This document shows, piece after piece, positions 14,535 through 63,866 of a stretch of DNA of 64,000 nucleotides (position 1 is its first letter; the number at the start of each line of letters is the position of its first letter). The notes under the pieces are model-generated. The model saw only the letters and a program-made list of their open reading frames with translations, had not been told where the DNA came from and did not search any database. The position numbers and the translations under genes were made by a program. Location: assembly GCA_963848295.1 (NCBI GenBank), contig CAWKDB010000010.1, positions 2,912,001 through 2,976,000 on the forward strand. The letters are read 5' to 3'. The DNA comes from an uncultured delta proteobacterium. Lineage in GTDB: Bacteria; Myxococcota_A; Polyangia; Haliangiales; Haliangiaceae.

Positions 14535-14631
14535 GTTGACAAAAGAGACAGCGTCCCCAAGAAAGCGGCTCGAAATCATCGGGTTAGACGCCGGGCTCTC
14601 CCGCGCAAGTTGACAAAAGAGACAGCGTCCC
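14535..14631 (-). repeat. Paired 24-bp direct-repeat element (14535-14558, 14609-14631)
   Basis: GTTGACAAAAGAGACAGCGTCCC(C) twice on + strand, period 74 bp; abuts anti-sigma stop codon. Confidence 0.95.
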
Positions 14632-15509
14632 TATTTCGTCGCGCACTTGGCGATGGCTGGGTCGGCGGCGAGCTGTCTCGACTGGGGACCGCCGACTCGC
14701 GCGCTGATCGCGTTCGCCTCGGCGCAATCGCCCCGCGCTGCAGCGGCTCGCGCCCGGGCGACGAGATCGTCGGGAGCTAGCGTCCGGTCGCGCGCGACTG
14801 GGCTCTTTGTCGCGTCTTTCGGCGCGGGCAGCCGGGGAGATTGCTGTTCGCTGTCATCCAGACCAGCCGCGTCGGTCGCGGGACTCTCGGTGTCAGGTGC
14901 GAGCTGCGGCGTCGACCGTGGCCGCGGTGCGTACGCCGGCTTCTTCGGCGGCGTGCTGTGGTGTTCCGTGGGGGCGAGTTGCGGCGTCGATGGCGAGCCC
15001 ACACTCCCAGTCCCGTCGGCAGGTGACGTTACCGGTGCGGTCTCGGTCTCGTGTTGGGCCTCCCCGCCAGTTACCGCTTTGTCGCTCTGCCTTTGCGATG
15101 TCGCGGCGCCGTTGCCACCCGGCGCAGAAGACACGCCCGATGGCGTGGCGGTCGATCGATCGATTTCGCCCGACGGCGCAGCAGCCGGAGTTTCCTTCGT
15201 TCCGCTGGTCGGTGCGCTCGGAACGATCATCGGGCCCGACGGAGCGATGCCATCGCCGCGACGGCCGATCGCGAGCGCACCGCCGATCACGACGAGCAAG
15301 GTCGCGAAAGCGAGGACGGGCGGCTTGCGCAGTTGCGCGAACAGCCGCCGCCACCACGGGGGGGGCGCTACGGCTTCGGCCCTCGCCCTTGCGGCCGCAA
15401 TCAGCTCGGCGATCCCCGCACTCGGTGGATCCTCGTCTGGCAGCGACAGCCAAACCGAGCGCAGCGCGCGAAGCTGCGCGTCTTCGGGCTCGGTGTCGTC
15501 GTCGTTCAC
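14631..15509 (-). CDS. Putative anti-sigma factor (single TM, low-complexity periplasmic part)
   Basis: Overlaps ECF sigma stop; N-terminal helix, PWWRR then TM. Confidence 0.7.
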   Translation of the reverse strand: MNDDDTEPEDAQLRALRSVWLSLPDEDPPSAGIAELIAAARARAEAVAPPPWWRRLFAQLRKPPVLAFATLLVVIGGALAIGRRGDGIAPSGPMIVPSAPTSGTKETPAAAPSGEIDRSTATPSGVSSAPGGNGAATSQRQSDKAVTGGEAQHETETAPVTSPADGTGSVGSPSTPQLAPTEHHSTPPKKPAYAPRPRSTPQLAPDTESPATDAAGLDDSEQQSPRLPAPKDATKSPVARDRTLAPDDLVARARAAAARGDCAEANAISARVGGPQSRQLAADPAIAKCATK

Positions 15510-16108
15510 GGCGCAGCCTTGGCCAGATCCTTATATTCGTCGAGCTCCAGCCGCAGCTTCTCGAGCGCGTAACGCATGCGGCTCTTCACCGTGTTCTCAG
15601 GCACGCCGACGACATCTGCGATCTGCTTGAACGGCAGGTCGAGAAACTCGCGCATCAAGAAGACCTCGCGCTGATCTTCGGACAACGTCGCGATCGCACG
15701 CTGCATCGTCTCGTGCAGCTGCTTGTTGACGCTCTTGCGATCGCTGGCCATTTCATTCGACGGGAGGACATCAAGCAGAGTGCCGCTCTCTTCGCTCGCG
15801 TCCATCGGGGCATCGAGCGACGCGTGCTTTCTATGTTTGCGTCTCCTCGTCTGGTCAACGCACAGGTTGCGCGCAATGGTGTAAAGCCACGTCGTGAACT
15901 TGGCCTGGCGCTTGTAAGCCTCCGCGCCTTTGATGACGCGCATGAAAGCTTCTTGCAGCAGATCTTCGGACGTCTCGCGATCGCCGACGAACCGCAAGAT
16001 GAAGTTGAACACCGGCTTGCGATGCCGAGACAGCAGTACCTCGAAGGCGCGAACCTCGCCCTTCTGGTACATGACCATGAGGTCTTCGTCGGCTGTGTCG
16101 TTGAACAT
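15506..16108 (-). CDS. ECF RNA polymerase sigma factor
   Basis: EDLLQEAF, FTTWLYTIARNLC, IADVVGVPENTVKSR. Confidence 0.93.
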   Translation of the reverse strand: MFNDTADEDLMVMYQKGEVRAFEVLLSRHRKPVFNFILRFVGDRETSEDLLQEAFMRVIKGAEAYKRQAKFTTWLYTIARNLCVDQTRRRKHRKHASLDAPMDASEESGTLLDVLPSNEMASDRKSVNKQLHETMQRAIATLSEDQREVFLMREFLDLPFKQIADVVGVPENTVKSRMRYALEKLRLELDEYKDLAKAAP

Positions 16109-16167
16109 TACGGTGTTACGGCCCGGGCGACACTAACACGAAGGTAAACGTCCAAAGGCTAGACCGC

Positions 16168-16995
16168 TTACGGGGTCTGACACGTTGGACAGTAATACGT
16201 TGCCCTTCCTTGGACGACCGACCGGCGGATCTTCGTCGAACAGCGCACACAGGGCTCGCCGTTGCGGCCGTACACCCTGAGATAGTCCGCGTTCGACCCC
16301 TCGGCCCCCGCGGCATCGACGAAATCGCGCAGGCTGGTCCCGTGATTCTCGAGAGAATCCGCGAGCACCGTGCGAATCGCGTCGGCGAGCCGTGCCGCGC
16401 TGATTTCGGTCAAGCGGTGGGCGCGCGTCGTCGGGCGTAGGCGCGCGAGCCATAGAGCCTCCGACGCGTAGATGTTGCCGACACCGGCGAGCACGCGCTG
16501 GTCGAGCACGAACGCCTTGAGGGTCGCCTGCTTCTTGCGCGAGCGCGAGAACAGATGTGTTGCCGAGATCCCGTCGACGAGTGGATCCGGGCCGAGTGCA
16601 GCTAGCGCTTCGTGGTCGCGCTCGCGCACTCTCTCGACGACATCGATTCGGCCGAATCGACGCGCATCGACAAATCGTAGCTCGCGTTCATCAGCAAGGC
16701 CGAGCACGACGTGGGTGTGCTTCGCTCGCGGCGTCTGGTTACGAGCGATCAACAGCCGCCCGGTCATACCTAGATGGACGAGCAACAAACGGTTCGAGTC
16801 GCAGTCGACGAGCAAATACTTGCCGACTCGGCGCAACCCGGTGATTCGCGAGCCGACCAGCATCTGCAACGCCTTGCGCGGCGGCTTGCGCCGCATGTGG
16901 AGGCCCTTGCCGCTGTCCCAGACGCTCGTGATCGTCACGCCGACCACAGGCGCTAGCGTGCGACGAACGGTCTCGACCTCGGGCAGCTCGGGCAC
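16168..16995 (-). CDS. mutM: Formamidopyrimidine-DNA glycosylase
   Basis: N-terminal PELPEVE, HLGMTG, GVGNIYASE, C-terminal zinc finger. Confidence 0.96.
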   Translation of the reverse strand: MPELPEVETVRRTLAPVVGVTITSVWDSGKGLHMRRKPPRKALQMLVGSRITGLRRVGKYLLVDCDSNRLLLVHLGMTGRLLIARNQTPRAKHTHVVLGLADERELRFVDARRFGRIDVVERVRERDHEALAALGPDPLVDGISATHLFSRSRKKQATLKAFVLDQRVLAGVGNIYASEALWLARLRPTTRAHRLTEISAARLADAIRTVLADSLENHGTSLRDFVDAAGAEGSNADYLRVYGRNGEPCVRCSTKIRRSVVQGRATYYCPTCQTP

Positions 16996-17053
16996 GCGTC
17001 GTTGTTAGCACGCGTGAATCCTCGGGGCGGGAGCACGCCCAGGCCGCTTGGAA

Positions 17054-17151
17054 GGTGACGCTGTCTCTATTGTCAACTTGCGGGTCAGCGGGCTCGCGGT
17101 AACCCGGGGCAATCACGCGGGTTCGCTGGGGACGGTGTCTCTTTTGTCAAC
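17054..17151 (+). repeat. Paired 24-bp direct-repeat element (17054-17077, 17128-17151)
   Basis: Period 74 bp; second copy lies inside the rsmA 3' end. Confidence 0.95.
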
Positions 17152-18021
17152 TAACGCCGCTGCAAGGGCCGCGAACTCCGGGATGTCCAGAGTCTCGCCG
17201 CGGCGCATACCATCGATCGACGTGGCTGACAGCGCTGCGTCGACATCGACGTCGGGCCACCTAGCGCGCAGCGCATTGCGCAGGGTCTTTCGGCGTTGGC
17301 CGAAAGCGGCGTGAACGACGGCGGAGTAGTGCTCGTGGTCGGCGATCGACGCGCGCGGCTCGCGCAACGGGACCATCTTGATCACGGTCGAATCGATCTT
17401 CGGCGGCGGTAGGAACGAAGCCGAGCCCACCTTGATCACGGTCGTGATGTCCGCGTACGTGCGGAGCAAGACACCGATCGCGCCGTACTCCTTCGTGCCC
17501 GGCTTCGCGACGATTCGATCGGCCATTTCTTTTTGGATCATCATCACCGCGACCCGGACGATGTCGCGCGCCTCGATCACCTTGAACAGCACTTGCGACG
17601 CGATGTGATACGGCAGGTTCCCGCACACTGCGATCGATTGGCCGCTCCACTTCGCGACCATCCGCAGGTCGTAGCGCAGCGCATCGACTTGTTCGATGTC
17701 GAGGTTGTCGACGGTGCCGAGCTCCGCGCGGAGCACGCGGATCATGTCGGGGTCGGAATCGAGCGCGATGACTTTTCCCGCGGTGACGCGCTCGACGAGC
17801 CGCGCGGTCAACGTGCCGAGACCGGCGCCGATCTCGACGATCCAATCGTCGTCAGTCGCGACGACCGCGTCGGCGATCGCACGGAGCGCACGCTCGGACA
17901 GCAAGAAGTTCTGGCCGAACTGCTTTTTGGCCCGCAGGCCATAGCGCTCGAGCAACACGCGCGCGTCGGGGAACGGCCCGAGCGCCTGGGCGAGACTCGT
18001 GATCCGATCGTCGCCGCTCAT
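17113..18021 (-). CDS. rsmA: 16S rRNA m6,2A dimethyltransferase
   Basis: KKQFGQNFL, EIGAGLG, GNLPYHI, MIQKEMADR, FGQRRKTLRN; start uncertain. Confidence 0.95.
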   Translation of the reverse strand: MSGDDRITSLAQALGPFPDARVLLERYGLRAKKQFGQNFLLSERALRAIADAVVATDDDWIVEIGAGLGTLTARLVERVTAGKVIALDSDPDMIRVLRAELGTVDNLDIEQVDALRYDLRMVAKWSGQSIAVCGNLPYHIASQVLFKVIEARDIVRVAVMMIQKEMADRIVAKPGTKEYGAIGVLLRTYADITTVIKVGSASFLPPPKIDSTVIKMVPLREPRASIADHEHYSAVVHAAFGQRRKTLRNALRARWPDVDVDAALSATSIDGMRRGETLDIPEFAALAAALVDKRDTVPSEPA

Positions 18022-18069
18022 CGGGGCACCTGGCGACGGAACACTCGAGCCAACATCCATGGCCCCCGA

Positions 18070-18202
18070 GTTGACCAAAGAACCTTCGGTCCCAGAGGAC
18101 CCCAAGTTGACAAAAGAGACAGCGTCCCCAGCGAAGCCGCGTGATTGCGCCGAGTTAGCGGGAGCCCCGCCGGGCGCAAGTTGACAATAGAGACAGCGTC
18201 CC
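18070..18202 (-). repeat. Paired 24-bp direct-repeat element (18106-18129, 18180-18202) plus degenerate copy 18070-18093
   Basis: Period 74 bp; abuts tsaD stop codon. Confidence 0.95.
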
Positions 18203-19222
18203 TCATCGGGGGAGCGGCGCCGTCGGCGTCGCTTCGAGGGTCAGGTCGGCTCTTTCGCCACGGCGCAGCCGGTGGTAGCCGGCCGCCGCGATCATCGCGG
18301 CGTTGTCGGTGCATCGCTGTGGCGGCGGAATGTAGACGCGAAAATCACCTTCGGCACCCGCCGCGCGCAAAGCTGCCCTCAACCCCGAGTTTGCCGCGAC
18401 GCCACCACAGACTTGCACGTGCGCGAGCCCCAGCCGCCGCGCCGCGCGCCGCGTCTTGCGCACGAGCACCTCGACGATCGCGGCTTGATAGCTCGCGCAC
18501 AGGTCCGCGAGCGGCTGGCCGTCGGGCACGCCGTTGGCGCGTACCCGATGGAGCAGCGCAGTCTTGAGCCCGCTGAACGAAAAGTCGTCGCCGTGCTCGC
18601 TCGCGGTCATCGACCTCGGGAATTCGATCGCGCGCGGATCGCCGGCCTGCGCGATCCGATCGAGCACCGCGCCGCCGGGATAGCCGAGGCCGAGCAGCTT
18701 CGCGCCTTTGTCGAACGCCTCACCTGCCGCGTCGTCGCGAGTGGCGCCGAGCTCGAATACGCGACCGTGATCCTCCACGCGAACGAGCGAGGTGTGACCG
18801 CCCGAAACGATCAACGCGAGATGCGGCATCGGTGGAGGAGCGGGTTCGAGATAGATCGCCGAGAGGTGGCCCTCGAGATGATGGACGCCGACGAGCGGCT
18901 TCCCCGTCACCCAGGCGATCGCTTTCGCGGTCTGCATACCGACGAGCAGCGCGCCGATCAGCCCCGGTGCGTTCGTCACCGCGATGCCGTCGATATCGGC
19001 GAGCGAGTAGCCCGCGCGGTCGAGCGCGCTTTGCACGACCGGCACCACATTCTGGACATGCGCGCGCGACGCGAGCTCCGGCACGACGCCACCGTATTTC
19101 GCGTGTACGTCGTGCTGCGACGCGACGACATCCGAACGCACGACGCTTCCGTCGACGACGACCGCCGCAGCGGTCTCGTCGCACGAGCTCTCGATGCCGA
19201 GCACCGTGTTCACGGGCACCAC
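18203..19222 (-). CDS. tsaD: tRNA N6-threonylcarbamoyltransferase
   Basis: GIESSCDET, VPELASRAH, HHLEGH, SGGHT, TDNAAMIA. Confidence 0.97.
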   Translation of the reverse strand: MVPVNTVLGIESSCDETAAAVVVDGSVVRSDVVASQHDVHAKYGGVVPELASRAHVQNVVPVVQSALDRAGYSLADIDGIAVTNAPGLIGALLVGMQTAKAIAWVTGKPLVGVHHLEGHLSAIYLEPAPPPMPHLALIVSGGHTSLVRVEDHGRVFELGATRDDAAGEAFDKGAKLLGLGYPGGAVLDRIAQAGDPRAIEFPRSMTASEHGDDFSFSGLKTALLHRVRANGVPDGQPLADLCASYQAAIVEVLVRKTRRAARRLGLAHVQVCGGVAANSGLRAALRAAGAEGDFRVYIPPPQRCTDNAAMIAAAGYHRLRRGERADLTLEATPTAPLPR

Positions 19223-19228
19223 GCCCGG

Positions 19229-21751
19229 TTAGCGCGGATCATTGAGAAGCCGCCGAGCCATAGGCGCTTCCTTACCATTGGGATCGAGCTCGAGGTAGCG
19301 CTCGAACGCGGCGCGCGCTTCGTCGCGCCGCTGCGCCGACCACAACAACATGCCCTTCTGTGCGAGCGCTGGCGGGTAGTCATGCACCTGGACGAGCGCC
19401 TCGTCGATGGCGGCGAGGGCCTCGTCGGTCCGGCCGAGATGGTTGAGCGCGTCGGCGCGGATCAGGTACGTGCGCGCAGCTCTACGCAACTTCAACGATG
19501 AATCGACGAGCTGCAACGCTTTGGTGAAATCCCCTGCGGTCACCGCGTCGTGCGCTTGGTCCATGAGATCGCGCGCCTGCTTTGCGCGATCCGATGGAGG
19601 TTCCTCATTGTCCGTCACCGCCGCATCGCGCGGCGCGCCTACGACTCGCGGCGCGGCATCCACCGCGACTGCTGCCGCGGCATCGCGCGGTGCGAGCGCG
19701 TCGCGGTGCGCCGATGCGGCATCGCGCGGGATCAGCGCGGCGTCAGCCGGAGCTACCGTGCGAGCAGCATCGGCGTGCAGTCCCGCATCGATCGCAGGGC
19801 GCCGCGGTGGCAATGGCGACATCGCGTCGACAGCGAGAGCCGTCGCGCCGTCACCGGCGTCGGTGCCCATCGGTGCGAGCACCGGCTCGTGCGGTCGATT
19901 CGGGCGAGCCCATCGCAACACGATCGCGGCGCCCGCGAGCAGCGCCGCGAGCACGAGCAGGACGCTCGCTCCCGTGCCGGGCGCCCAGCTCGGCCGCACG
20001 CGCGTCGCGCCACCAGCCTGCGAGACTCGCCGCGGCGGCAGCGGGGTAGCCATCGGCACCGAGGACGGCTCGAGCGCGCTCGCCGCACCGGCCGGCGCAG
20101 CTGCGACGATCGGGACTTCGCGCGTGTTCTTGCGCGGCATGATCGTCACGAGCTCGCGCGCCGTTGACGCTCGTGACTGCGCGAACGGCGTCGGGATCAA
20201 CTCGCCGGAGGCCTCGGCCCGATCGCGGCCGAGCGATCCGATCATGCGAAGCCCCGAATCCTCGCGTCGGTCGGTTCGGCGCGAGCGTGACGGGTCGGTG
20301 GGCGGGTCGTGGTCGAAGCCAGACTCGCCATTCGCATGCTCGTCGTGCGGGAGCTCGGGCTCTTCCGCGAACGGCTGCGACGGAACGCCGGACGAGTCGT
20401 CATCGACGTCGGCCTCGGGCGCGGCGGCCGTCATGACTTGCGCGCGATGGGGCGGCTCAGGGTCGAACAGCCCGGGCTCGATCGCCTGCGCGGCCGCGAC
20501 CGCCTCGTCGATCAATCGCAAGCTCGATGGCCGGTAGCCACCCATCAACGGGCCCGGCTCGGGCTCGATATATGGCTCGGCGTCGATCTCATCGGGCTCC
20601 GGTTCCGGCGCGGGCGCTTGGAGCGGCGGCGGCTCGAGTGGCGCGTGCGGCTGGCCAGAATCGCGGCGCGCGCGATATTCGAGCTGCTCGTGCGCGGTCG
20701 GGCCCGAAGCGACCTCCTCCATCGGTGTTCGGGGAGCCGGAGAATCCTCGAGCATCACGAGCGGCATGGGCTTGCCGGTGATCCGCTTCGGCGGCTGATC
20801 GGGATCGAGATCGACCAGCAACCCTTCGAAGTACAACTTCGAGATCGCTTGCAGGCATTCGAGATCGCCGAAGTCGGAGGCGTCGATGACCTCGAGTAGC
20901 GTGTGTTTGCCGTCGAGCAGCCGCAAGATCCGGTTGTTATCGTCGGGAACTTCGCCGAGCCGCGTCGACAGCTCGTCGAGATCAACTTCGAAACGATGGC
21001 CGAGTGGAGGCAACTGTTCGAGCAGGCGCGACCATTCGTCGAGTCGCCGCATGCCTTCCATCAGGAGGCCTTGCGAGCTCGTCATGATCGCCTCGCGCCG
21101 GCGTACGGTTCGGAACATCACCTCGAACTCGCCGTCGCCCCACGTGAGCAGGCGGTACACAGCGTCCTCGGCTTGCAGGGGGCCGGCTTCGGCGTCGATC
21201 ACTTTACCGTCGCGGAAGTAGATCGCCGCTTGTCGGCCACGCTCGCCGACGAACTGGATCACGCCGGACTTTCGACTGACTTCGATCGTCTGGATCACGT
21301 CGACGACCGGCATGTCCGCGACGCGACCGGCGAACCGCATCCCATCGCGCCGCTCCTCGAACTTCGCTCGCTGCCTTTTCTGGAGCAGGATGTTGATCCG
21401 CGTGACGATCTCTTTGATGTAGATCGGCTTGGTCAGGTAGTCGTCGACGCCGAGCTCGAGCCCGCGAATCTTGTGCTCGATCGCGGTCTCGGCGGTGAGG
21501 AACACGAATGGGATCTCCGCCCAGTCAGTGCTCTGCCGAACTCGGCGACGTAGCTCGAACCCGTCGAGCTCGGGCGCCGGGAACGTCGTCTCCGAAATGA
21601 TCAGGTCGGGGGTGTGGAGCTCGAGCGTCTCGAGCGCCTCTTTGACCGAGGGCGCAGGCGTGACGGTGAAGCCGGCTTTGCGCAGCGACACTTCGAGCAC
21701 TCGCAAGCTGCGAGTGTCCCCGTCGACAAGGAGCAGGCTTTGCTTCGTCAC
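19229..21751 (-). CDS. Receiver + DUF4388-like + TM + TPR multidomain regulator
   Basis: N-terminal receiver (GVDDYLTKP), DUF4388-like VIQTIEVSRKSG...IYFRDGKVIDA, TM helix, C-terminal TPR. Confidence 0.82.
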   Translation of the reverse strand: MTKQSLLLVDGDTRSLRVLEVSLRKAGFTVTPAPSVKEALETLELHTPDLIISETTFPAPELDGFELRRRVRQSTDWAEIPFVFLTAETAIEHKIRGLELGVDDYLTKPIYIKEIVTRINILLQKRQRAKFEERRDGMRFAGRVADMPVVDVIQTIEVSRKSGVIQFVGERGRQAAIYFRDGKVIDAEAGPLQAEDAVYRLLTWGDGEFEVMFRTVRRREAIMTSSQGLLMEGMRRLDEWSRLLEQLPPLGHRFEVDLDELSTRLGEVPDDNNRILRLLDGKHTLLEVIDASDFGDLECLQAISKLYFEGLLVDLDPDQPPKRITGKPMPLVMLEDSPAPRTPMEEVASGPTAHEQLEYRARRDSGQPHAPLEPPPLQAPAPEPEPDEIDAEPYIEPEPGPLMGGYRPSSLRLIDEAVAAAQAIEPGLFDPEPPHRAQVMTAAAPEADVDDDSSGVPSQPFAEEPELPHDEHANGESGFDHDPPTDPSRSRRTDRREDSGLRMIGSLGRDRAEASGELIPTPFAQSRASTARELVTIMPRKNTREVPIVAAAPAGAASALEPSSVPMATPLPPRRVSQAGGATRVRPSWAPGTGASVLLVLAALLAGAAIVLRWARPNRPHEPVLAPMGTDAGDGATALAVDAMSPLPPRRPAIDAGLHADAARTVAPADAALIPRDAASAHRDALAPRDAAAAVAVDAAPRVVGAPRDAAVTDNEEPPSDRAKQARDLMDQAHDAVTAGDFTKALQLVDSSLKLRRAARTYLIRADALNHLGRTDEALAAIDEALVQVHDYPPALAQKGMLLWSAQRRDEARAAFERYLELDPNGKEAPMARRLLNDPR

Positions 21752-21827
21752 GATCCCCGGGCGGGCAAATCGTATCGCGCTAACCAAACCGTCGCCAGCA
21801 ACGCGGCCGCCGGCGTACGCTAGATCG

Positions 21828-22970
21828 GTGAGGCTCGAGCTTCCGTACGGCCGAGCGCCCTACCCGGTCGACCTCGTGGCACCGGACCTCGAGATCGTGG
21901 GTGCGGCGCCACTGCCACCGGCCTCCGAGTCGATCGATCATGCAATCGCCCGTGCACTCGAGGCCCCGATCGGCTGCGGCTCGTTGCGTTCGCTGGTAGC
22001 ACGCCGCGGACGCGTGACGGTGATCGTGAGCGACACGACTCGCGACGAGCCGCGAGCTGCGATGCTGTCCGCGATCCGCGGCGAGTTACCCGACGCGCAG
22101 CTCACGATTGCGGTCGCCACCGGAACCCATGGGCCAGCCGCGATCGGGCCGCTCGGGATCGATGCGTTTCTCGCAGGGGCGCGCGTCGTCAACCACGACG
22201 GCCACCGCGACGAGGATCTGGTCCTGCTCGGGACCACGGAGCGCGGCACCCCCGTGCGACTTCATCGTTGCGTCATCGAGACCGACCTGGTCATCGCCAC
22301 CGGCTGCATCCGACCGCATTACTTCGCCGGATTCGCCGCGGGCGGCAAAGCGATCTTCCCGGGTCTCGGCGCCGCGAGCGATATCCGACGCAACCATCAG
22401 CTGAAGATCCAGCCGGGCGCACGAGCTGGGGACATCGATGCGAATCCGTGTCGAGCAGATCTCGACGAGGCAGTGAGCTTCGTCGAAACGCCCACGTTCT
22501 TGCTCGACGTTGTTGCAGCTCCGGATGGGCCTCGAGCGGCAGTCGCCGGGGAGCTCGGGGCCGCGTTTCGTGCAGGCGTCGAGCTCTGTCGGCCTTGGTT
22601 CACGGTGCGAGCACGTCGAGCGCCGCTGGTCATCGCCTCCGATGCGCTGCCGGTGGCTGCGACCCTCTATCAAGCCGCCAAGATTTTTGCCGCGGCGCTA
22701 CCGTTGGTCGAAGAAGGCGGCAAGCTGATCGTCGTGGCTGAGTGTTGTGACGGAATCGGACCACTTGATGTGGTGAACGAAGCGATCTTTCGGATCGGCG
22801 TCTTGCCGCGCGTCCCGGCCGGCGCAGCGATCGCGTTGGTCAGCGGTCTGGCGGCCGACGTCATCGCGCGTACCCTCGTAGAGTTTGCACCGAACGTATC
22901 TGTCGGAGGTGCCGCGAGGGTCGTGGTGGTTCCGCGTGCGAGTCAGCTGATCTGTGAACCGACGTCATGA
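21828..22970 (+). CDS. Lactate racemase (LarA) N-terminal domain protein
   Basis: SDTTR, ATGTH, NHD, PHYFAGFAAGGKAIFPG, LYQAAK. Confidence 0.82.
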   Translation: MRLELPYGRAPYPVDLVAPDLEIVGAAPLPPASESIDHAIARALEAPIGCGSLRSLVARRGRVTVIVSDTTRDEPRAAMLSAIRGELPDAQLTIAVATGTHGPAAIGPLGIDAFLAGARVVNHDGHRDEDLVLLGTTERGTPVRLHRCVIETDLVIATGCIRPHYFAGFAAGGKAIFPGLGAASDIRRNHQLKIQPGARAGDIDANPCRADLDEAVSFVETPTFLLDVVAAPDGPRAAVAGELGAAFRAGVELCRPWFTVRARRAPLVIASDALPVAATLYQAAKIFAAALPLVEEGGKLIVVAECCDGIGPLDVVNEAIFRIGVLPRVPAGAAIALVSGLAADVIARTLVEFAPNVSVGGAARVVVVPRASQLICEPTS

Positions 22971-23530
22971 TCGAGTCGGCCCTCACCCGCCTCGGTATTG
23001 ACCGTGAATATGTAAGTAAAATCAGTGATTTCATCGATACACTCGAGCGATGGAATCGCAGTATCAACCTGACCGCTGCGAAGTCTCGCGCTGACATCAT
23101 CGATCACGTTGTGGACTGCCTGAGCGTCGTCCCGCATCTCGCCAGCCGAATGCGCGTTCTCGATGTCGGTTCCGGTGGTGGATTGCCAGCCGTGATCGCG
23201 GCGATCTGTTTGCCCGGGTCGACCATCACCGCTCTCGAACCCACTCACAAGAAGCACGCTTTCCTTCGCGCGTGTGCGCGTGAGCTGAACCTGCCGAATC
23301 TGATACCGCTGGCCGAACGCCTGGCCGATCACCGCGTCGCCGACTACGACGCCGCGACTTCGCGCGCGACGTTTGATCTGGCCGACTGGCTCGCGCTCGG
23401 CAGAAGCCGCGTGCGTGCCGGCGGCATCGTGATCGGGTTCGAGGCGACACCGCGTTCGGATCTCCCGACTGGCACGACTCGTCATCCGTATGCCCACGGC
23501 GATCGCACGCGCGCGCTCGTGATCCTGTAG
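22967..23530 (+). CDS. rsmG: 16S rRNA m7G527 methyltransferase
   Basis: WNRSINLTA, HVVDCL, LDVGSGGGLP, KKHAFL, TSRA. Confidence 0.93.
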   Translation: MIESALTRLGIDREYVSKISDFIDTLERWNRSINLTAAKSRADIIDHVVDCLSVVPHLASRMRVLDVGSGGGLPAVIAAICLPGSTITALEPTHKKHAFLRACARELNLPNLIPLAERLADHRVADYDAATSRATFDLADWLALGRSRVRAGGIVIGFEATPRSDLPTGTTRHPYAHGDRTRALVIL

Positions 23531-23584
23531 GCGCCAGTCCTCATGGTTATCTCGAGCGCGCACGCGCGTTACCGGGCAGCTCCG

Positions 23585-23600
23585 CGTTCCACGTGGAACA
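23585..23600. promoter_or_regulatory. parS centromere site
   Basis: CGTTCCACGTGGAACA matches the parS palindrome; origin-proximal. Confidence 0.9.
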
Positions 23601-23756
23601 CATCGAGCACCGCGCATGCTCTGCGCTCGACCCGCCGAGCGGACAACCAATCGCATCGAACGTCACACGTCCACCGTTCGATCGCAGCCCGGTCCATCGA
23701 ACCCGGAACCTCGGTCGTTCACGACACCTGGCTCCACCCATGGGCGGCGGCAGCGT

Positions 23757-24220
23757 CCATCCACGCGCTTTGCGCCAGCCGCTCCGACCCACGGGGGGCG
23801 ACGCGATCGTCCATCCACGCGCTTTGCGCCAGCCGCTCCGACGGGGGGCGACGCGATCGTCCATCCACGCGCTTTGCGCCAGCCGCTCCGACGGGGGGCG
23901 ACGCGATCGTCCATCCACGCGCTTTGCGCCAGCCGCTCCGACGGGGGGCGACGCGATCGTTCACTCACGCGCTTTGCGCCAGCCGGTCCGACCCACGGGG
24001 TCGACGCGATCGTTCACCCACGCGCTTTGCGCCAGCCGCTCCGACCCACGGGGGGGCGGCGCGATCCACCCGCGCGCTTTGCGCCAGCACGCGCCGACCC
24101 ACGGGGGTCGGCGCGATCCATCCGCGCGCTTGCGCCAGCACGCTCTGACCAACGAGGCAGCGAGATCGTCTACCTACGCGCTTCGCGCACGCACGGCTCC
24201 GACCGGGGTCGGCGGGATCC
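23757..24220. repeat. ~50-bp tandem repeat, about 8-9 copies, degenerating rightwards
   Basis: Unit CCATCCACGCGCTTTGCGCCAGCCGCTCCGACGGGGGGCGACGCGATCGT; exact copies at 23811, 23861, 23911. Confidence 0.93.
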
Positions 24221-24342
24221 ATGCGGTTCACGGCGCCTGCCCGGACCCACGGAGGGCTCGTCGGGATCCGCCCGCTTCACGACCCCGCGCGACTCACGGG
24301 GCACCACCCGCCAGAGGGCGCAATCGGGCTCTGCACCACGGT

Positions 24343-24358
24343 CGTTTCACGTGGAACG
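24343..24358. promoter_or_regulatory. parS centromere site overlapping the bioD stop
   Basis: CGTTTCACGTGGAACG. Confidence 0.88.
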
Positions 24359-24997
24359 TATCGCAGCGAGCACCGTATCCAACGCCGAGGGTTCGTCGCG
24401 GTAGATAGCGACCGTTCCGGACCATGCCGCTCGGATTTGGTCGGCGTTGCTCCGCGCAAATACGTCGTCCTCGCCGGCTCGGCGAGACAGCACGAGCGCC
24501 GAGACCGTGAGCCCATCCCGCTCGATCGCCTCGACGGTGAGCAAGCTGTGATTGATCGTTCCGAGCCCTGCTCGAGCCACGACCACGACCGGAAGAGCCA
24601 AGGCACGAGCAAGTCCCGACATATCAAGAACCCGCGTGATCGGAACCCGCCAGCCACCTGCACCCTCCACCAGGCTAAGATCAGCCTGGCAGGCGCCCGA
24701 GGCGGCGAGATGCAGTACACGTTCGGGGCTGATCTCGGCCCCTTCCGCGGTGGCCGAGACGAGCGGAGCCGCGGCCAGCTCGAACGAGTACGCACCCGCC
24801 AGCTCCCCACGTTGCCAGCCACCAGCTGCTTGTGTGAGCGCCTGCTGGTCTTCTCCAAGCTCGCCGTGGCATCCGGTCTCGATCGGCTTGAACGCGAACA
24901 CGCGCTGCCCAAGCTCGCGCGCTCGCCGCGCCAATGCACTCGTGACGAACGTCTTGCCGACGCCGGTATCGGTTCCGGTAACGAAGGCGCCGATCAT
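24347..24997 (-). CDS. bioD: Dethiobiotin synthase
   Basis: FVTGTDTGVGKT, KPIETG, VEGAGG, LGTINH. Confidence 0.95.
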   Translation of the reverse strand: MIGAFVTGTDTGVGKTFVTSALARRARELGQRVFAFKPIETGCHGELGEDQQALTQAAGGWQRGELAGAYSFELAAAPLVSATAEGAEISPERVLHLAASGACQADLSLVEGAGGWRVPITRVLDMSGLARALALPVVVVARAGLGTINHSLLTVEAIERDGLTVSALVLSRRAGEDDVFARSNADQIRAAWSGTVAIYRDEPSALDTVLAAIRST

Positions 24998-26257: not shown

Positions 26258-26259
26258 GG

Positions 26260-27417: not shown

Positions 27418-27486
27418 CGGCGCGGACTATAGACGCTCGAGCTTGCCGATCAATCGGGATGAGACTCAGCCCGCCACGCCGACGCT

Positions 27487-27631
27487 ATTGACCATGGAGA
27501 CAGCGCCGGCAGCTCCACGCCACGCGCGACCCAAGTTGACAATAGAGACAGCGTCCCCAGCGAACCCGCGCGATTACCGTGATTTGCGGCGCGCTACACG
27601 CAGCCCAAGTTGACAATAGAGACAGCGTCAC
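27487..27631 (-). repeat. Paired 24-bp direct-repeat element (27535-27558, 27609-27631) plus degenerate copy near 27487-27507
   Basis: Period 74 bp; abuts mnmE stop codon. Confidence 0.95.
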
Positions 27632-28936
27632 TACTTGCCGATGCAGAAGCGGGCGAAGACTTCATCGAGGACTCGGTCGCCGACCTCGATGCCTCGGAGC
27701 TGGGCTAGCGCGGCGACGGCGGCACGGAGCTCGAGCGCGAGGATCTCGGGCGGCGCGCGCACGGAGGCCGCGGCGAAGGCGTCTCGTGCGGCGAGGGCGG
27801 CGGCGTGCTGGCGCTCGGTCGTGACGAACACGTCTTCGTTGCCTTCGCGATCGCCGATGCCGGCGACGTCGAGCACGCGCGCGATCAGCTCGTCGAGGCC
27901 AAAACGGGTCACCGCCGAGGTGGCGAGAGCACCGGCGGTCGCGCCTCCGAGGTCGGCCTTGTTGCGCACGACGATCGCGCGGCGACCGAACCTCGAACCG
28001 TCATCCCACGACGACGCGCCATCGTTGACGACGACGACGACATCGGCCGTCGCGACCCGTGCTCGCCGAGCGCGATGCCACGCGCTTCGACGGGGTCGTG
28101 AGTGTCGCGCGAGCCGGCCGTGTCGATCACCGTGACGGCGATGCCGTGCCAAGCTGTCTGGACTTCGACGTAGTCACGCGTCGTACCGGGCTCGGCGGCG
28201 ACGAGCGCTCGCTCGCTGCCGATCAGCGCGTTGAGCAGCGACGACTTGCCGACGTTGACCGGCCCGACGAGCGCGACCGCGAGGCCTTGCCCGATCGCAC
28301 GCGACCGACGAAAGCCGTCTGCGAGCGCCGCGCAGCGGTCGCGCAATGCGGCGATCTCGGTTGCGATCCAACTGCTCGCTCGGTGGTTGGAGATCGTCCT
28401 CCGGAAAATCGATGCGGCCCTCGACCTCGGCGAGCACCACGAGCGCTCGCCGCTCGAGCTCGATGACCGCGTCGCCGAGGCGGCCTTCGAGGTTGCGCTT
28501 GCGCGAGTCGCCAGGCCCGCTCGCTGCCGGCGGCGATCACGCCGAGCAGGGCTTCGGCGCGGACCAGGTCGAGCTTGCCGCCGAGCACCGCGCGACGCGT
28601 GAACTCACCGGGCTCGGCGAGCCGAGCTCCGCGCTCGACCACCGCCGCGAGCAGTCGCCCGAGGTTGTGCGAGCCGCCGTGGCCGTGGAGCTCGGCGACG
28701 TCCTCGCCGGTGAACGACGCCGGCGCCCGCATCGCGAACGCGAGCACCTGATCGATGCGCTCGCCCGCGGCATCTTTCGCCCAACCTAGGCGAACGCTGC
28801 GATCGAGCGACGCCTCGGCAACCCCGAGCGCGTCGGCCGCGATCGCGATCGCACGCGGACCGCTGAGCCGGACGATGCCGACTCCACCCGCGCCCGCCGC
28901 GGTCGCGATCGCCGCGATCGTGTCCGTCTCGCTCAC
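27631..28936 (-). pseudogene. mnmE: tRNA modification GTPase MnmE with three frameshifts (~28496, ~28370, ~28060; possibly sequencing errors)
   Basis: [58 protein letters not shown] spread over four ORF segments. Confidence 0.9.
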
Positions 28937-29451
28937 TCGGCAGCAGGGGCCGCGGCGGCTTCGCCCGGCACCACGAGGATGTGGCGATCTTCGCCTTCTC
29001 CTTCGCTGCGGCTCGACAGGCCGGGGATCTCCGCGATCGCCATGTGAACGATCCGGCGATCGTGCGGCGACATCGGCTGGAGCTCGACGATCTGCTTGGT
29101 CTGCAGCGCCTTCTCGCCCATCCGCTGCGCGAGTGTGCGCAGCCGCTCGACCTGTTTGTCGCGAAATCCGCCGGCGTCGACGATCAACGGCTTGGTCCGC
29201 TCCGTGCTGCGGTCCTTGTACACGGCCTTGTTGACCATGTGCTGCAAGGCGTCGATCACGACGCCATGCCGGCCGATCACGACCTCGGTATCCGCGGTCT
29301 GGATCTCGAGCACGGTCTTGTCGGTCTCTTCTTTGATGTCGATGTCTGCCGAGATTCCCATGCGCTCGAGAGCTCCGAGCAGGAAATCACTCGCCTTCTC
29401 GGCGAGGTCTTCACGTTCAGCAGTAGCAGGCTGAGTCACGGCTTGTTCCAT
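28933..29451 (-). CDS. jag: Jag/KhpB RNA-binding protein (KH + R3H)
   Basis: IGRHG..IDALQ KH, RRIVH R3H, SEGEGEDR; synteny. Confidence 0.92.
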
Positions 29452-32560: not shown

Positions 32561-32641
32561 CTTCTGGATTGCTTGTCTTTTGTCTGTGACCAATGAAGCC
32601 CAACTCGATGCATTCGCAGGACATTGTTCCTGGAGCGTGGA

Positions 32642-34072
<1,431 letters not shown>

Positions 34073-34335
34073 ATGCGATGTGGATGACCCTGAGGGAAGA
34101 GCTGTGGACCAGCCGTGGGCCGTCGGAGCTCCCTCGGTTGTCCACACCTACAGAGCATGTCATCCATGACCAGGCAGAACGTCAGACCGTCGTGGTGCTA
34201 TCGCGGAAATCTCAGGAAGAACGCTTCGCTCCCGCGATGTACACATGTTCACAACCATCTACTAGATCTGATTCTAAGAAGATTTTATCTCTTAAAGAAC
34301 AGATAGAGCGAAGAGCAAAGACGAGATAGGCGAGG
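34073..34335. other. Probable oriC: DnaA-box cluster and AT-rich unwinding element
   Basis: Box-like 9-mers at 34079, 34103, 34138, 34237, 34245, then AT-rich tract ~34254-34310 between dnaA and dnaN. Confidence 0.8.
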
Positions 34336-34341
34336 GTGACC

Positions 34342-35439
<1,098 letters not shown>

Positions 35440-35442
35440 CGC

Positions 35443-36540
35443 CTGCACGTCTCGCTGCTGTCCGTCTCCGGGGTGCGCAACCTCGCGCCCGTGCAGCTCG
35501 TGCCGCGCGCGCGGTTCAACGTGTTCGTCGGCGACAACGGCCAGGGCAAGACGAACTTGCTCGAGGCGCTCTACGTGGTCGCCGCGCTGCGCTCGTTTCG
35601 AACCGCGAAGCTCGCGGACCTCATCGCGTTTGGACAGCCCAAGGCCAGCATTGCCGCGAGGGTCGAGCGCGGAGGTATGACGCGCCTCTACGAGGTCGAC
35701 CTCGAGCCCGGCGGTCGCAGGGTCCGGCTCGACGACAAGGCGGTCAGGCCGCTCGCGCGTTACTTCGGCGGGTTCAACGTCGTCGTGTTCACCCCGGAGG
35801 ATCTCGCGTTGCCGAGAGGCGCACCCGGTGACCGCCGCAAGTTTCTCGACCGCGCGGTGTTCAACGTCCAGCCGGAGTTTCTCGCAACCGCGCTCGACTA
35901 TGACAAGGCGCTCAAGCAACGCAACGCGCTGCTCAAGATGGCCGGGCAGGGCGCGCTGACTCCGGCGCGGCTCGACGAGCTGCTCGCAGGCTACGATCCC
36001 CAGCTCGCCCGGCTCGGCGTCGCGGTCGCGCAAGCGCGGGCCGAAGTCATCGCCCGGCTCGTGCCCGACCTCGCAGCCTCGTTCGCGGCGATCACCCGCA
36101 GCGGGCTGGTCGCCAACGCGCGCTATGTCTCGGAGGTCGCGGGAGCGACTCCGGACCAGGTCGAGCAAATGCTGCGCGACGGCAGAGCGCGAGATGTCGC
36201 CCGCCAGGCGACGTCCACAGGCCCGCACCGCGATGATGTCTTGCTGGAGCTCGACGGGCGCGAAGCCGGGAGTTTTGCGTCTCAGGGCCAGCTGCGCGCG
36301 ATCATGCTCGCTTGGAAGACCGCCGAGCTCGTCATGCTGGCCCGGGCCCACGGCGATCCGCCGATCCTGCTACTCGACGACGTGTCGAGCGAGCTCGATC
36401 CGAGCCGCAACGCGTACCTGTTCGAGCACGTCGCTTCGCACGCGGGTCAGTGCTTCATCACGACGACCCACGCCGACCATGTTCTGGTCTCCGAAGACCG
36501 GGCCAACTACCGGATCGAAAGCGGCAAGATTTCCTCGTAA
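35443..36540 (+). CDS. recF: DNA replication/repair protein RecF (start CTG 35443 or GTG 35473)
   Basis: GDNGQGKTNLLEA, GPHRDD, SQGQ, LLLDDVSSELD. Confidence 0.95.
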   Translation: MHVSLLSVSGVRNLAPVQLVPRARFNVFVGDNGQGKTNLLEALYVVAALRSFRTAKLADLIAFGQPKASIAARVERGGMTRLYEVDLEPGGRRVRLDDKAVRPLARYFGGFNVVVFTPEDLALPRGAPGDRRKFLDRAVFNVQPEFLATALDYDKALKQRNALLKMAGQGALTPARLDELLAGYDPQLARLGVAVAQARAEVIARLVPDLAASFAAITRSGLVANARYVSEVAGATPDQVEQMLRDGRARDVARQATSTGPHRDDVLLELDGREAGSFASQGQLRAIMLAWKTAELVMLARAHGDPPILLLDDVSSELDPSRNAYLFEHVASHAGQCFITTTHADHVLVSEDRANYRIESGKISS

Positions 36541-36583
36541 AATCCGGCACATGATCCTTCTTGCAGGGTGAGGTTCGTGGTAA

Positions 36584-39043
<2,460 letters not shown>

Positions 39044-39046: not shown

Positions 39047-39219
39047 GGTGACGCTGTCTCTATTGTCAACTTGGGTGCCGAGCGCGCCTCTGTAACTGTC
39101 GACAATCGCTTTGGGTTCTCTGGGGACGCTGTCTCTATTGTCAACTTGTAGGGTTCTTTGGGCGGTTCTTGGGGTTCTTGGGGACGCGGGTTCTTGGGGA
39201 CGCTGTCTCTATTGTCAAC
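39047..39219 (+). repeat. Triple 24-bp direct-repeat element (39047-39070, 39122-39145, 39196-39219)
   Basis: Periods 75 and 74 bp; begins 3 nt after the gyrB stop. Confidence 0.95.
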
Positions 39220-39309
39220 TTGTAGGCGTTCGGGACCCGGAATGCAGGCGGCCGGCCCGGCCGATGGGCTGGCGGAACGATGACCTGCGGTCGAGGGGCT
39301 CGGCTTCGA

Positions 39310-46117: not shown

Positions 46118-46264
46118 GGGGACGGAGTACCTCTTGTCAAGCCGTGGGACCTTCGCGCCTGAGCTGGGGACGCTGTCTCTTCTGTCAACTTGCCAAGAAA
46201 ACGGAAACGTCGATCTCAGCAAGATCGCTGAGGTTGTCGTGGGGACGCTGTCTCTTTTGTCAAC
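46118..46264 (+). repeat. Paired 24-bp direct-repeat element (46166-46189, 46241-46264) plus degenerate copy 46118-46141
   Basis: Period 75 bp; lies between divergent genes. Confidence 0.93.
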
Positions 46265-46275
46265 TTACGCGGTTG

Positions 46276-47640: not shown

Positions 47641-47647
47641 CCGGCAA

Positions 47648-47744
47648 GTAGACAAAAGAGACAGCGTCCCCAGAGATCCTCAGAGATCTCGATGAGATCG
47701 GGCTAGCGCTTTTTCGGCAAGTGGACAAAAGAGACAGCGTCCCC
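47648..47744 (-). repeat. Paired 24-bp direct-repeat element (47648-47671, 47721-47744)
   Basis: GT(A/G)GACAAAAGAGACAGCGTCCCC twice, period 73 bp; overlaps the WYL gene 3' end. Confidence 0.93.
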
Positions 47745-56446: not shown

Positions 56447-56461
56447 ACGGGACGTCCCCAG

Positions 56462-60587: not shown

Positions 60588-60664
60588 CCGCCCTGAAGCA
60601 GATTGTACGATCCATCTTCATCGCGCACAACCAATGATTCCGCGTGGTTGTGATCGGAGTCGCG

Positions 60665-61300: not shown

Positions 61301-62853
61301 CGCAGCACCGCGCTGCGCCGGAGGATGTCGCCTTGCTCGGTGCTGATGTCGTCGCCGCCGAACTCCGAGAAGTACATGAGGTTCGCGCTCGACGTGTCGC
61401 TATCGTCGATCGGATCGGTGTGGACGAGATCGAGCTCGAGGTTGTCGTACAGCCCGAGGTAGCGCGCGGCTTCGTGCGCGACGAGCCGCGACAGCTGATC
61501 CCACGACCGGTAGCACAACGTATCGAGACCGATGACGATGCCCGATTGCGCCGTGCCCGGGAGCCCGCCAGGTCCGGGGTTCGGGCCGAACGCTTCGAGG
61601 CCGATCGGCGACAGTGTGCGGACAAAGAACACGTCGAGGCCGGTGGTGTGCGAGCCGAGCGCGAGCAGCTGGCCGGCGTTCGAGACGTCGAGCCCGTCGA
61701 GCTCGGGATGGTCGAGGATGTCGTCGTAGTCCACCGTGCCCAGGTTGAGCCCGACGTGCGCGAGCACGGTGCGCAGCGTCCCCAGGAAGTCGGTCTGGAA
61801 GAACGCGGCGGACTGCGCGAGCTGCGCGGTCAACGCGCCGCCGCCGAACTGAGCCGAGCACGGATGATCTTGGAAGTTGAGGAAGTGGAGATGCAGATCG
61901 AGCGTCGCACCGTGGTCGAGCTTGACGACCGCGGTCATCCGGGGCGTCTCGGTGCCGACGGTGGTCGGAAACGGCGCGCGCAACGACGACACGTGCAGCG
62001 CATAAGCACCCTCCAGCAACGGCTGGGACGGCGCCGACAACGGGTCGGTAGGGGCCGACGGCATCGCGAGCACCGACTGGCCGAAGCCGGGTTCGTGGCG
62101 GACGAGGTTCGAGTAGTAGTCGCCGTTCGGGTCGACGAGCACGACGCCTTGATTATCGCCGGTCAGCGTGTGGACCGGCGACACGACCTTCGTCGCGCCG
62201 ACTTGCTGCGCGGCATCGTCGATCTGGAACGTGACCGCGACGCTATACGCGGTGCTCGGGACCGGCAACAGCACGTCGGCTTCTGGGCCGTCGACCGGGA
62301 TCGCCCAGGTCAATGAGCCGGTGGCCGGGATGCAACCCCAGAACGGGTAGCCGATCGCTTCGACCCGCGGGATCACCGCGCAGGTCTGGCCGAGCGCGCA
62401 GTCGCGCGAGTTGTTCGACGGCGAGCACAGGTCGACACAATGGCCGAGCGCGCATGTGCCGTTGCGACATTCATCGTCGGTCGCGCAGGTCGAGCCATCT
62501 GCGGCGCCCGAGTTTTCGGCGACGCAGCTCGCGGTCAGCGTCTGCGGCATGTTGTCGTTGAGGTTTGTCGTGCCGTCGAGCTCGCACGACAAGCCGACCT
62601 CGCACTCGGGCTCGCCGCTGCACGAGGCGCCGAGTCCGGCGGCCGACTGAGTGCATGTCCCGTCGCCGGCGCAGGCGTAGCCATCGCCGCAGTCGGGGGA
62701 TCGCTGGCACCGCGCGACGCACACGTTGCCTTGGCACTGCAGCGAGCTCTCGCAATCGCCGTTGCCGCCGCACGAATCGCCGAGCCCCCCGGAGCCAGCC
62801 GGGCAGCCGGCCAGCGCGGCGACCATCAGCGCGAAGAGTGAGCGGTATCGCAT
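61297..62853 (-). CDS. Cys-rich lipoprotein with degenerate zincin-like domain
   Basis: LAGC lipobox, Cys repeats, AHEAARYLGLYD and NLMY Met-turn. Confidence 0.75.
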   Translation of the reverse strand: MRYRSLFALMVAALAGCPAGSGGLGDSCGGNGDCESSLQCQGNVCVARCQRSPDCGDGYACAGDGTCTQSAAGLGASCSGEPECEVGLSCELDGTTNLNDNMPQTLTASCVAENSGAADGSTCATDDECRNGTCALGHCVDLCSPSNNSRDCALGQTCAVIPRVEAIGYPFWGCIPATGSLTWAIPVDGPEADVLLPVPSTAYSVAVTFQIDDAAQQVGATKVVSPVHTLTGDNQGVVLVDPNGDYYSNLVRHEPGFGQSVLAMPSAPTDPLSAPSQPLLEGAYALHVSSLRAPFPTTVGTETPRMTAVVKLDHGATLDLHLHFLNFQDHPCSAQFGGGALTAQLAQSAAFFQTDFLGTLRTVLAHVGLNLGTVDYDDILDHPELDGLDVSNAGQLLALGSHTTGLDVFFVRTLSPIGLEAFGPNPGPGGLPGTAQSGIVIGLDTLCYRSWDQLSRLVAHEAARYLGLYDNLELDLVHTDPIDDSDTSSANLMYFSEFGGDDISTEQGDILRRSAVLR

Positions 62854-62926
62854 CGCGATGCGATTCCCGGCACAGACGCGCGAGGAGCCGCACACCGAGT
62901 ATATAATGTCGCCGCCTGGGGGAATC

Positions 62927-63772
62927 ATGCGTTTCGTCACGAGCTTGACCGTGTTGTTCATCGCCGGAACTGCCGTCGCGGGGCCCGCGCTCGACGATGA
63001 CAAGAACGCCACACCGACCCCGGCGCCCGCGCCGGCTGCGTCCGGCACGGACCCCACCGCCGCTGGAGGCGGAGCGGGCACCGCTGCACCGACGACCGAG
63101 GCGCCTAGCCCCTTGGCCGAGAAAGTCTCGTACGGCTTCGACATTCGACTGCGCAGCGAGTGGGTGCCGCAGGCGATCCTCGGCCTGTTCATGAAGTCGT
63201 CGCCGGGCGGTGCTCAGAGCGCAGCGATCGGCGCCGATTTTGTACGCCGGCGTGGCGACACCGAGCTCGCGTTCGGCATGGAGTACGAGCAGATCAACCC
63301 CAAGCAGGGCGTCTACGTTCAGAGCAACAGCAACGTCGCGGACGGCGACACCGTCGACTACATCCTGTCGCCCGAGAATGCCGGCAGCAACTTCGGCTGG
63401 GTCACGTTCGAGTTCACGTTCATCGGCCACAAGCCGTTCAACAAGTACGTCTCGTTCCGCTACGGCATCGGCGCTGGCCTTGGCGTCCTGACCGGAGGTC
63501 TCTATCGGATCGACACGCAGTGCGCGGCCGGCACGACCGACGCGACCGCGGCGACCGGCTGCGTTCCCCCGCCATACGGTCAAACCGGTACCGTCTCGCC
63601 CGACCACCCCGGCGATCCCGAGCCGGGCAAGTACGACCTGCCGCCGGTCTTCCCGGTCTTGAACGCCCTCGTCGGCTTCCAGTTCCACCCGGTCGAGCAC
63701 ATCGTCATCAACCTCGAAGGCGGCCTCCATACGTTACCCTTCGTCGGCCTCTCGGTCGGCGCGATGTGGTGA
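62927..63772 (+). CDS. Putative outer-membrane beta-barrel protein
   Basis: Signal peptide, alternating hydrophobic strands, C-terminal Trp. Confidence 0.7.
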   Translation: MRFVTSLTVLFIAGTAVAGPALDDDKNATPTPAPAPAASGTDPTAAGGGAGTAAPTTEAPSPLAEKVSYGFDIRLRSEWVPQAILGLFMKSSPGGAQSAAIGADFVRRRGDTELAFGMEYEQINPKQGVYVQSNSNVADGDTVDYILSPENAGSNFGWVTFEFTFIGHKPFNKYVSFRYGIGAGLGVLTGGLYRIDTQCAAGTTDATAATGCVPPPYGQTGTVSPDHPGDPEPGKYDLPPVFPVLNALVGFQFHPVEHIVINLEGGLHTLPFVGLSVGAMW

Positions 63773-63866
63773 CGCTGTCTCTATTGTCAACTTAGGTCGA
63801 ATCTCGCGTTCTGGAGATCGCGGTAATTACGAGCGTTTCGCCGGGGACGCTGTCTCTATTGTCACC
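63768..63866 (+). repeat. Paired 24-bp direct-repeat element (63768-63791, 63843-63866)
   Basis: Period 75 bp; fills the whole gap between two convergent stop codons. Confidence 0.95.

Follow-up and report, generated by a model that had tools for sequence, protein, structure and literature searches.

Same-strand repeat doublets around dnaA of a Haliangiaceae bacterium are probably sites of TIRYT-type HUH transposases with lineage-specific spacing

The closest described relatives of the system considered here are the TIRtrons with their TIRYT transposases (Di Nocera 2013, PMC3733652), which are equivalent to subclass 2.1 of the TnpA-REP enzymes (REP, repetitive extragenic palindromic; Quentin 2018, PMC6006769). 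In the main text of the latter paper, subclass 2.1 is the second largest group of these enzymes and no REP-like partner was found for it; in the main text of the former, TIRYT binding and cleavage were left untested. I analyzed a stretch of 64,000 nucleotides (the window; positions 2,912,001 to 2,976,000 of contig CAWKDB010000010.1, hereafter C10, assembly GCA_963848295.1) from an uncultured delta proteobacterium of the Haliangiaceae family. It carries units composed of two same-strand repeats, an outer and an inner one, separated by a spacer of nearly constant length. As described for TIRYT (PMC3733652, PMC6006769), a HUH-tyrosine enzyme with a C-terminal DnaA-like helix-turn-helix accompanies inverted repeats opening with GGGG-W-S-A, and the repeats form dispersed families, some in dimers or clusters. 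Unlike in the published TIRYT systems, each end is a same-strand doubled repeat with a lineage-fixed period, and the published motif GGGGWSAS is matched in part, the repeats of this genome reading GGGGACG. Periods, phased spacers, in-place change, duplications with a fixed start and clustering at the origin do not appear in the main text of the TIRYT papers.

The units also resemble the REPINs of group 3 RAYTs (Bertels and Rainey 2011, PMC3116915), which are extragenic and multi-copy, have a cognate transposase, and form doublets whose distance is fixed within a group (71 and 110 bp) and whose spacers retain their length better than their sequence. However, REPINs are inverted and fold into hairpins, while the present units are direct repeats without consistent folding: the repeat alone gave -0.4 kcal/mol (z 0.05), and 7 of 9 units had a z of -1.4 to 0.4. 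Nor do the repeats have the REP stem-loop with a GTAG-type tag. Head-to-tail REP dimers are described as absent or rare in most genomes in the main text of Di Nocera 2013 (PMC3733652), and group 1 RAYTs as having only modest flanking repeats (PMC5581495). A literature search found no same-strand doubled terminal inverted repeats (TIRs) with lineage-specific periods in the texts it covered; most subscription papers, the supplements and Figure 9 of PMC3733652, which counts dimeric TIRs, lay outside it. What is already known from these sources comprises the TIRtrons and their repeat families, the fixed-distance REPIN doublets, and the concerted change of REPs beside RAYTs.

It is probable, judging from the sequences compared below, that a TIRYT-type HUH enzyme engages the two repeats at a distance that depends on its lineage, with a predicted nick about 8 bases before the repeat, and that the repeats are rewritten in place while the spacer drifts. 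A search of the window with a 27-nt reference (39196-39222, up to 8 mismatches) reproduced exactly the nine periods listed in a first-pass annotation: 74, 74, 74, 74, 75, 74, 75, 73 and 75 bp. The repeat of this family, family A, is 26-27 bp long (consensus NGKGACGCTGTCTCTWTTGTCAMCTT). In the 7.8 Mb genome containing the window (G000; 85% complete), a profile scan found 159 copies at a score of at least 16, with 0 matches above 8 in the reversed genome. A scan with three profiles gave 157 copies of family A, 71 of family B (the type at 10752) and 34 of the minor types C and D. Among same-strand neighbors within 400 bp, genome-wide, 56 of 71 in family A are 73-75 bp apart (one being a duplicate on contig C7), as are 25 of 27 at 64-65 bp in family B and 7 of 7 at 65-66 bp in family D. 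Inverted neighbors in family A lie at scattered distances, the fixed-period pairs being the same-strand ones. The 65 bp that the annotation gave for the 10753 locus is exact, but this locus is not an outlier of family A; it belongs to family B, which has its own period of 65 bp. The sequence between the repeats drifts, as had been claimed. Among 54 A units, the pairwise identity is 90% for the repeats, 38% for the spacers (28.5% when shuffled) and 28-29%, the background level, for the flanks; in family B it is 90-95% for the repeats and 42% for the spacers.

Conserved direct repeats with variable spacers of constant length recall scattered two-repeat CRISPR mini-arrays. This explanation is so improbable as to be negligible: the spacers have a positional consensus and are inherited, the same repeats flank a HUH gene as inverted ends, Cas1 was not found in the genome at its 85% completeness, and Rfam gave no match in the window. 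Two side observations concern the repeat families. Among the A pairs there is a subclass with a period of 67 bp, in most of which the outer repeat ends in AACCA; it occurs at C10:1457954, 3095355 and 4568324 of G000 and at L341, L344 and L349 of a close relative, G112; two sites have 67 bp in one species and 75 bp in the other. Near-identical units with their flanks lie at C7:5337 and C10:3595394 and may be an assembly duplicate.

Two genes of one HUH family were found in G000 by motif and similarity search. The gene of enzyme A (316 amino acids, C10:2679444-2680394) lies about 232 kb before the window and is flanked on either side by two A repeats, the two ends being inverted, with periods of 73 and 74 bp. 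The gene of enzyme B (307 amino acids, C10:1101402-1102325) is likewise flanked by two B repeats per end, with periods of 65 and 65 bp. Thus, the genes are flanked by TIRs and not by hairpin REPs. The motifs S/N-HIH (HUH), YIHNNP and WTSHRAY are conserved in both enzymes, and H59, H61 and Y117 are invariant in 18 aligned rows. Both enzymes match NF047646 with an E-value of about 1e-10, below its cut-off, and the C-terminus of enzyme A has weak matches, also below cut-off, to Pfam Bac_DnaA_C (E 0.001) and to helix-turn-helix domains. The predicted structure (mean pLDDT 89) best matches E. coli TnpA-REP (4er8, E 5e-6), and its helical C-domain matches the DNA-binding domain of M. tuberculosis DnaA (3pvp) with a root-mean-square deviation of 1.8 over 92 columns (E 0.011). 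Families A, B and D, reading GGGGACG, fit the TIR motif GGGG[AT][CG]A[CG] at 6 of 8 positions, and related loci reading GGGGTCAG or GGGGACAG fit it fully. The closest named relatives are from Kofleriaceae, which makes a myxobacterium of this family the likely host, and homologues are present in 51 of 91 genus genomes at E <= 1e-15 (a tally that takes in G010). On these sequence and model comparisons, enzymes A and B fit the TIRYT, or TnpA-REP subclass 2.1, type. A search of G000 with Pfam Y1_Tnp yielded nine matches to another Y1 family, none flanked by these repeats, and missed both cognate genes. This other family, represented by loci L001-L009 of G000, is multi-copy and separate (H-x-H, YVLNN), and a segment upstream is common to several of its loci.

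Does the period belong to the enzyme? Among 140 distinct related loci (bit score at least 110), 98 have inverted repeats by my count, and 36 (four from a relaxed search) have doubled ends with a period equal within 1 nt at both ends. Their periods are 54 (2 loci), 56 (2), 59 (2), 60-63 (23), 65-66 (5) and 73-74 bp (2). In a quick tree of the enzymes (95 rows), most of the 59-63 periods fall in one large clade and the 65-66 periods in a small one, and A groups with B. Genome-wide, neighboring repeats have a period of 53-55 bp in 20 of 21 cases in G011, 56-57 bp in 38 of 38 in G067, 60-61 bp in 21 of 22 in G073, 61 bp in 19 of 23 in G104 and 59-60 bp in 13 of 18 in G114. Since these five other genomes have their own periods of 54-61 bp, the ruler belongs to the enzyme lineage. 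The idea of a ruler put forward in the first-pass annotation fits in this form: the period is particular to a transposase lineage and is the same at the two ends of its gene and throughout the genome. A ruler-type tandem duplication as the origin of the units is not supported: the likeness of outer and inner halves is confined to the repeat, with no surplus identity outside it. A broad pattern search over G011, G015 and G072 found nothing. At C3:3513302-3514407 of G011, a stretch of about 1 kb is enclosed by four repeats belonging to the 54-bp family; it also contains one A-like repeat.

The annotation had also suggested that the two sites lie on the same helical face, seven turns of 10.5 bp apart. 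A distance of seven turns suits family A without being general. The ten distinct periods (54, 56, 59, 60, 61, 62, 63, 65, 66 and 73.5 bp) gave a Rayleigh R of 0.25 with p of about 0.5 at 10.0, 10.5 and 11 bp, which does not support a universal integer number of turns. A 10.5-bp comb across families was not seen; the low p on all 36 loci was the same for 10, 10.5 and 11 bp and was due to the 61-bp clade. Within family A only, phased A/T spots support the suggestion. In the A spacers, A/T is retained at positions +47/48, +58/59 and +68/69 counted from the outer repeat, whether the period is 74 or 75, and G112 has the same spots. The power at 10-11.5 bp has a column-permutation p of 0.027, the best period being 11.5-12. 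Relative to the inner repeat, A/T is retained at about -16 and -6/-5 in families A and B alike and at -17 and -6 in the five D units. These spots suggest bending or protein contact across the unit.

The units were then compared with those of G112, whose genes are 87-92% identical to those of G000. The A loci of G112 were most of the 100 matches listed of 117, and the B loci were 18 pairs from a pattern allowing periods of 61-67; all 18 have a period of 65. Among the matches listed, 53 of 73 G112 pairs map to occupied G000 sites, 19 do not and 1 is unresolved. In another genome, G072, the units are absent at 5 of 5 window sites aligned. Orthologous spacers of G000 and G112 are 61% (A) and 70% (B) identical, four-fold sites being 73% identical. 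At 24 shared sites with a measurable neighbor, the period is kept within 2 nt in 19 and the length of the adjoining non-coding stretch in 4; the distance is thus held fixed between species as well as within the genome. Repeat position 12 is G in 72 of 72 G112 copies compared, while the G000 orthologues have T in 59, A in 2 and G in 11. The concordance of outer and inner copies is confined to repeat positions 2-29, where partners share variants beyond chance (positions 12, 19 and 22). Because sites and periods are shared, position 12 changed in concert and the concordance stays within the repeat, the repeats appear to have been rewritten in place and the spacers inherited. Two sites have changed family, the period in each species being near that of the family present: L345 has A in one species and B in the other, with periods of 74 and 65 bp, and L382 shows an A/B swap with periods of 65 and 72 bp and a 1-nt deletion in the repeat. 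At orthologous RAYT loci with changed REPs, the flanking repeats likewise change in concert while the gene stays (Nunvar 2010, PMC2817692, main text). Those repeats lie beside the gene, unlike the present ones, which changed at dozens of dispersed orthologous sites.

The same comparison bears on a simple alternative, in which a single 100-bp unit was recently copied out from a common source and its length is unconstrained. A few spacer pairs do reach 74-78% identity, and units within 5 kb of each other are more alike (0.46 vs 0.37). However, the low average identity of the spacers speaks against such copying, most sites are older than the split of G000 and G112, and the retention of the period but seldom of the adjoining length contradicts it. 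This explanation is very unlikely.

An unconstrained search found 26 tandem duplications near the repeats. Ten start at -13..-5 from the repeat, against 1.4 expected from other intergenic DNA, and five more do so when counted from the next copy (my reading). When re-scored, there were 15 events at 13 copies, 14 of them in family A. Among the 12 complete events, 8 allow a start at -8 and 4 are without microhomology, while the ends range from 0 to +49. Sixteen loci of five other genomes, chosen mainly because their spacing was off-period, gave 9 duplications, of which 6 start at -7..-10 (three other species) and 3 at -1 or 0; 3 are without microhomology. A fixed start, 7-9 bases ahead of a repeat, with a variable end is what a nick, extension of the 3'-OH and resealing to the phosphotyrosine end would leave. 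This fits the model for BIME (bacterial interspersed mosaic element) amplification by E. coli TnpA-REP, in which a nick, 3'-OH extension and attack on the Tyr-5'-phosphate end add a tandem unit (Ton-Hoang 2012, PMC3333891, Fig. 7B legend). The E. coli enzyme is described as cutting C|T near a hairpin (PMC8266576), while the site predicted here is set by distance (about -8), with no sequence common to the events.

One such duplication lies in the window. The low-complexity spacer at 39146-39195, which the annotation had taken as still keeping the distance, consists of short duplications ending within the 5' end of the repeat, the clearest starting at -8 and ending at +8, and is apparently a product of this kind. 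It precedes a third A copy (39196-39222; the whole segment is 39149..39222, + strand), which is absent at the same site in G112. The copy is indeed 74 bp from 39122, but this may be chance, because other duplication-built spacers measure 35-96 bp. An excision scar of fused repeat 5' ends was also considered and rejected, with 4 intergenic cases against 1-15 for control words. A short palindrome at window position 56449 resembles a fusion of two repeat 5' ends but is not enriched genome-wide; at this site, G112 carries three A repeats.

Could host recombination account for these patterns, the transposase having only inserted the units? Host gene conversion would then homogenize the repeats, and polymerase slippage at a bound protein would make the duplications. 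The variants shared by partner repeats are as local conversion predicts, and a roadblock could fix one end of a duplication. However, 26 bp is short for RecA-type conversion, slippage needs the microhomology that the above 4 of 12 complete G000 events and 3 in other species lack, and the conservation of length is left unexplained. I consider this explanation quite improbable.

In the transposase reading, the C-terminal DnaA-like helix-turn-helix would bind the repeat as double-stranded DNA, because the units form no consistent hairpin. The A/T spots would mark bends or contacts within a complex that extends over the two repeats. If a nick on the GGGGAC strand frees a 3'-OH, this end would be elongated through the repeat and then rejoined to the 5'-phosphotyrosine end. 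Aborted rounds would account for the duplications, and a switch of template, either to the partner or to a different copy, would rewrite the repeat. In-register pairs may thereby be refreshed and spread, while mis-spaced ones would decay.

The placement of the units was scored with a home-made gene caller. Of 59 units with a stop codon facing their outer side, 43 have it within -6..+4 of the outer repeat, and 35 of 88 units occupy gaps between convergent genes, a class that makes up 308 of 3010 gaps. A MITE would have two inverted ends around a short core and move as one unit; among the A clusters, 43 of 69 are lone ends and 8 are two-plus-two forms, several enclosing host genes; ksgA and a NUDIX-trmB pair are bracketed in the manner of a transposase gene. 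Forms with four repeats seem to be frequent in G073 and G104. The window contains the GC-skew minimum of C10 as well as dnaA-dnaN-recF-gyrB (32624..39043, + strand), around which A and B units are enriched. The zone within 350 kb of this minimum has 30 of 75 A loci against 6.7 expected, 12 of 34 B loci against 3.1 and 3 of 22 C/D loci against 2.0, contigs other than C10 being unplaced. The gene of enzyme A is inside this zone and that of enzyme B is 1.8 Mb off. Family A has 35 units on the leading and 20 on the lagging strand, and family B 13 and 12.

Such placement favors the alternative that the units are ordinary non-autonomous ends spread by the transposase and that a host protein or function (wrapping by a nucleoid protein or gyrase, or termination) selects the spacing, seven turns for family A. 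The A/T spots of family A, 10-11 bp apart in phase with the repeats, and the long persistence at shared sites also favor such selection. In contrast, three periods (74, 65 and 65-66 bp) coexist in one host, the periods track the enzyme tree, the 10.5-bp comb is absent, a site that swaps family adopts the new period, and the units have no consistent hairpin. Thus, selection of the spacing by the host seems unlikely.

Several points weigh against the transposase reading. The persistence of the period by enzyme-dependent refreshing is its weakest step, with slight support, and the host may also select the units. Single repeats are slightly more mismatched than paired ones (0.74 vs 0.36, p 0.023), and the old base is retained in 5 of 19 singles and 13 of 113 paired copies (p 0.14), which is not significant. 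Changes of the repeat leave the bases 8 nt ahead of outer repeats intact, so that rewriting does not replace them. Left junctions, as seen between empty and filled sites, scatter from -7 to +1 in most alignments, and insertion at -8 is therefore not established. A fixed-start duplication is found at 1 of 147 G112 copies, while such duplications are common in family A of G000, where the events were read from the assembly and not from reads. No symmetric doubled end is present at 104 of the 140 related loci, many of them truncated and many single-TIR. The match of clade and period was seen on the quick tree. Finally, a cognate enzyme for families C and D was not found in G000, as far as its 85% completeness allows. 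A bolder proposal is tentative and doubtful as a whole: these TIRYTs may be site-resident repeat editors, HUH nickases whose DnaA-like domain reads double-stranded DNA. They would gauge a span of 54-75 bp that is specific to the lineage and cut about 8 bases outside the repeat whatever the sequence. They would also rewrite sites chromosome-wide, take over the sites of rival families and reset the spacing, and build an origin-centered array of bent DNA that the host may use.

In the window, the family B unit (10752..10843, + strand; outer 10752, inner 10817, period 65) overlaps the stop codon of a dynamin-like open reading frame (ORF, 8980-10752); its site is occupied in G112 and empty in G072. 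Two adjoining dynamin-like GTPase genes, the second with TPR repeats, occupy 8980-13743 with this unit between them. The first A unit (14532..14632, - strand; outer 14606-14632, inner 14532-14558, period 74) is followed, just past its inner repeat, by three copies of an 18-bp unit (14471-14525) that are not in this form in G112. The A units at 17054..17154 (+ strand; repeats 17054/17128, period 74) and 18103..18203 (- strand; outer 18177-18203, overlapping the tsaD stop codon, inner 18103-18129, period 74) bracket the rsmA/ksgA ORF (17113..18105, - strand) as the transposase gene is bracketed; the frame of rsmA/ksgA crosses the inner repeat at 17128 and stops in the spacer. At 27532..27632 (- strand, period 74), the outer repeat (27606-27632) overlaps the stop codon of an mnmE-like ORF. 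The unit at 39047..39148 (+ strand; repeats 39047/39122, period 75) begins 4 nt past the gyrB stop codon. The unit at 46166..46267 (+ strand; repeats 46166/46241, period 75) faces that at 47645..47744 (- strand; outer 47718-47744, inner 47645-47671, period 73) across the NUDIX and trmB genes, and a degenerate C-type repeat (46118..46144, + strand) lies 48 bp before it. The last unit is at 63768..63869 (+ strand; repeats 63768/63843, period 75), and an ORF (62726-63772) stops within its outer repeat. Sequencing run X1, possibly the source sample, has contigs that cover both the 10752 and the 17054 pair without any difference. Four contig sets compared with window positions 9500-29400 gave no informative joint at the units. 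A tandem array of about 8 copies of a 50-bp unit (23754-24204) is unrelated to the repeats considered here.

What the present locus family provides is a candidate substrate (two direct repeats at a distance of 74 or 65 bp), a predicted position and strand of cutting and, in a single genome, two enzymes whose rulers differ. A swap experiment can therefore test how the repeats spread and stay uniform. If the transposase reading is true, a distance-defined HUH nickase acting on double-stranded DNA would differ from the hairpin-guided IS200/REP enzymes, and this little-studied enzyme group would gain a testable target.

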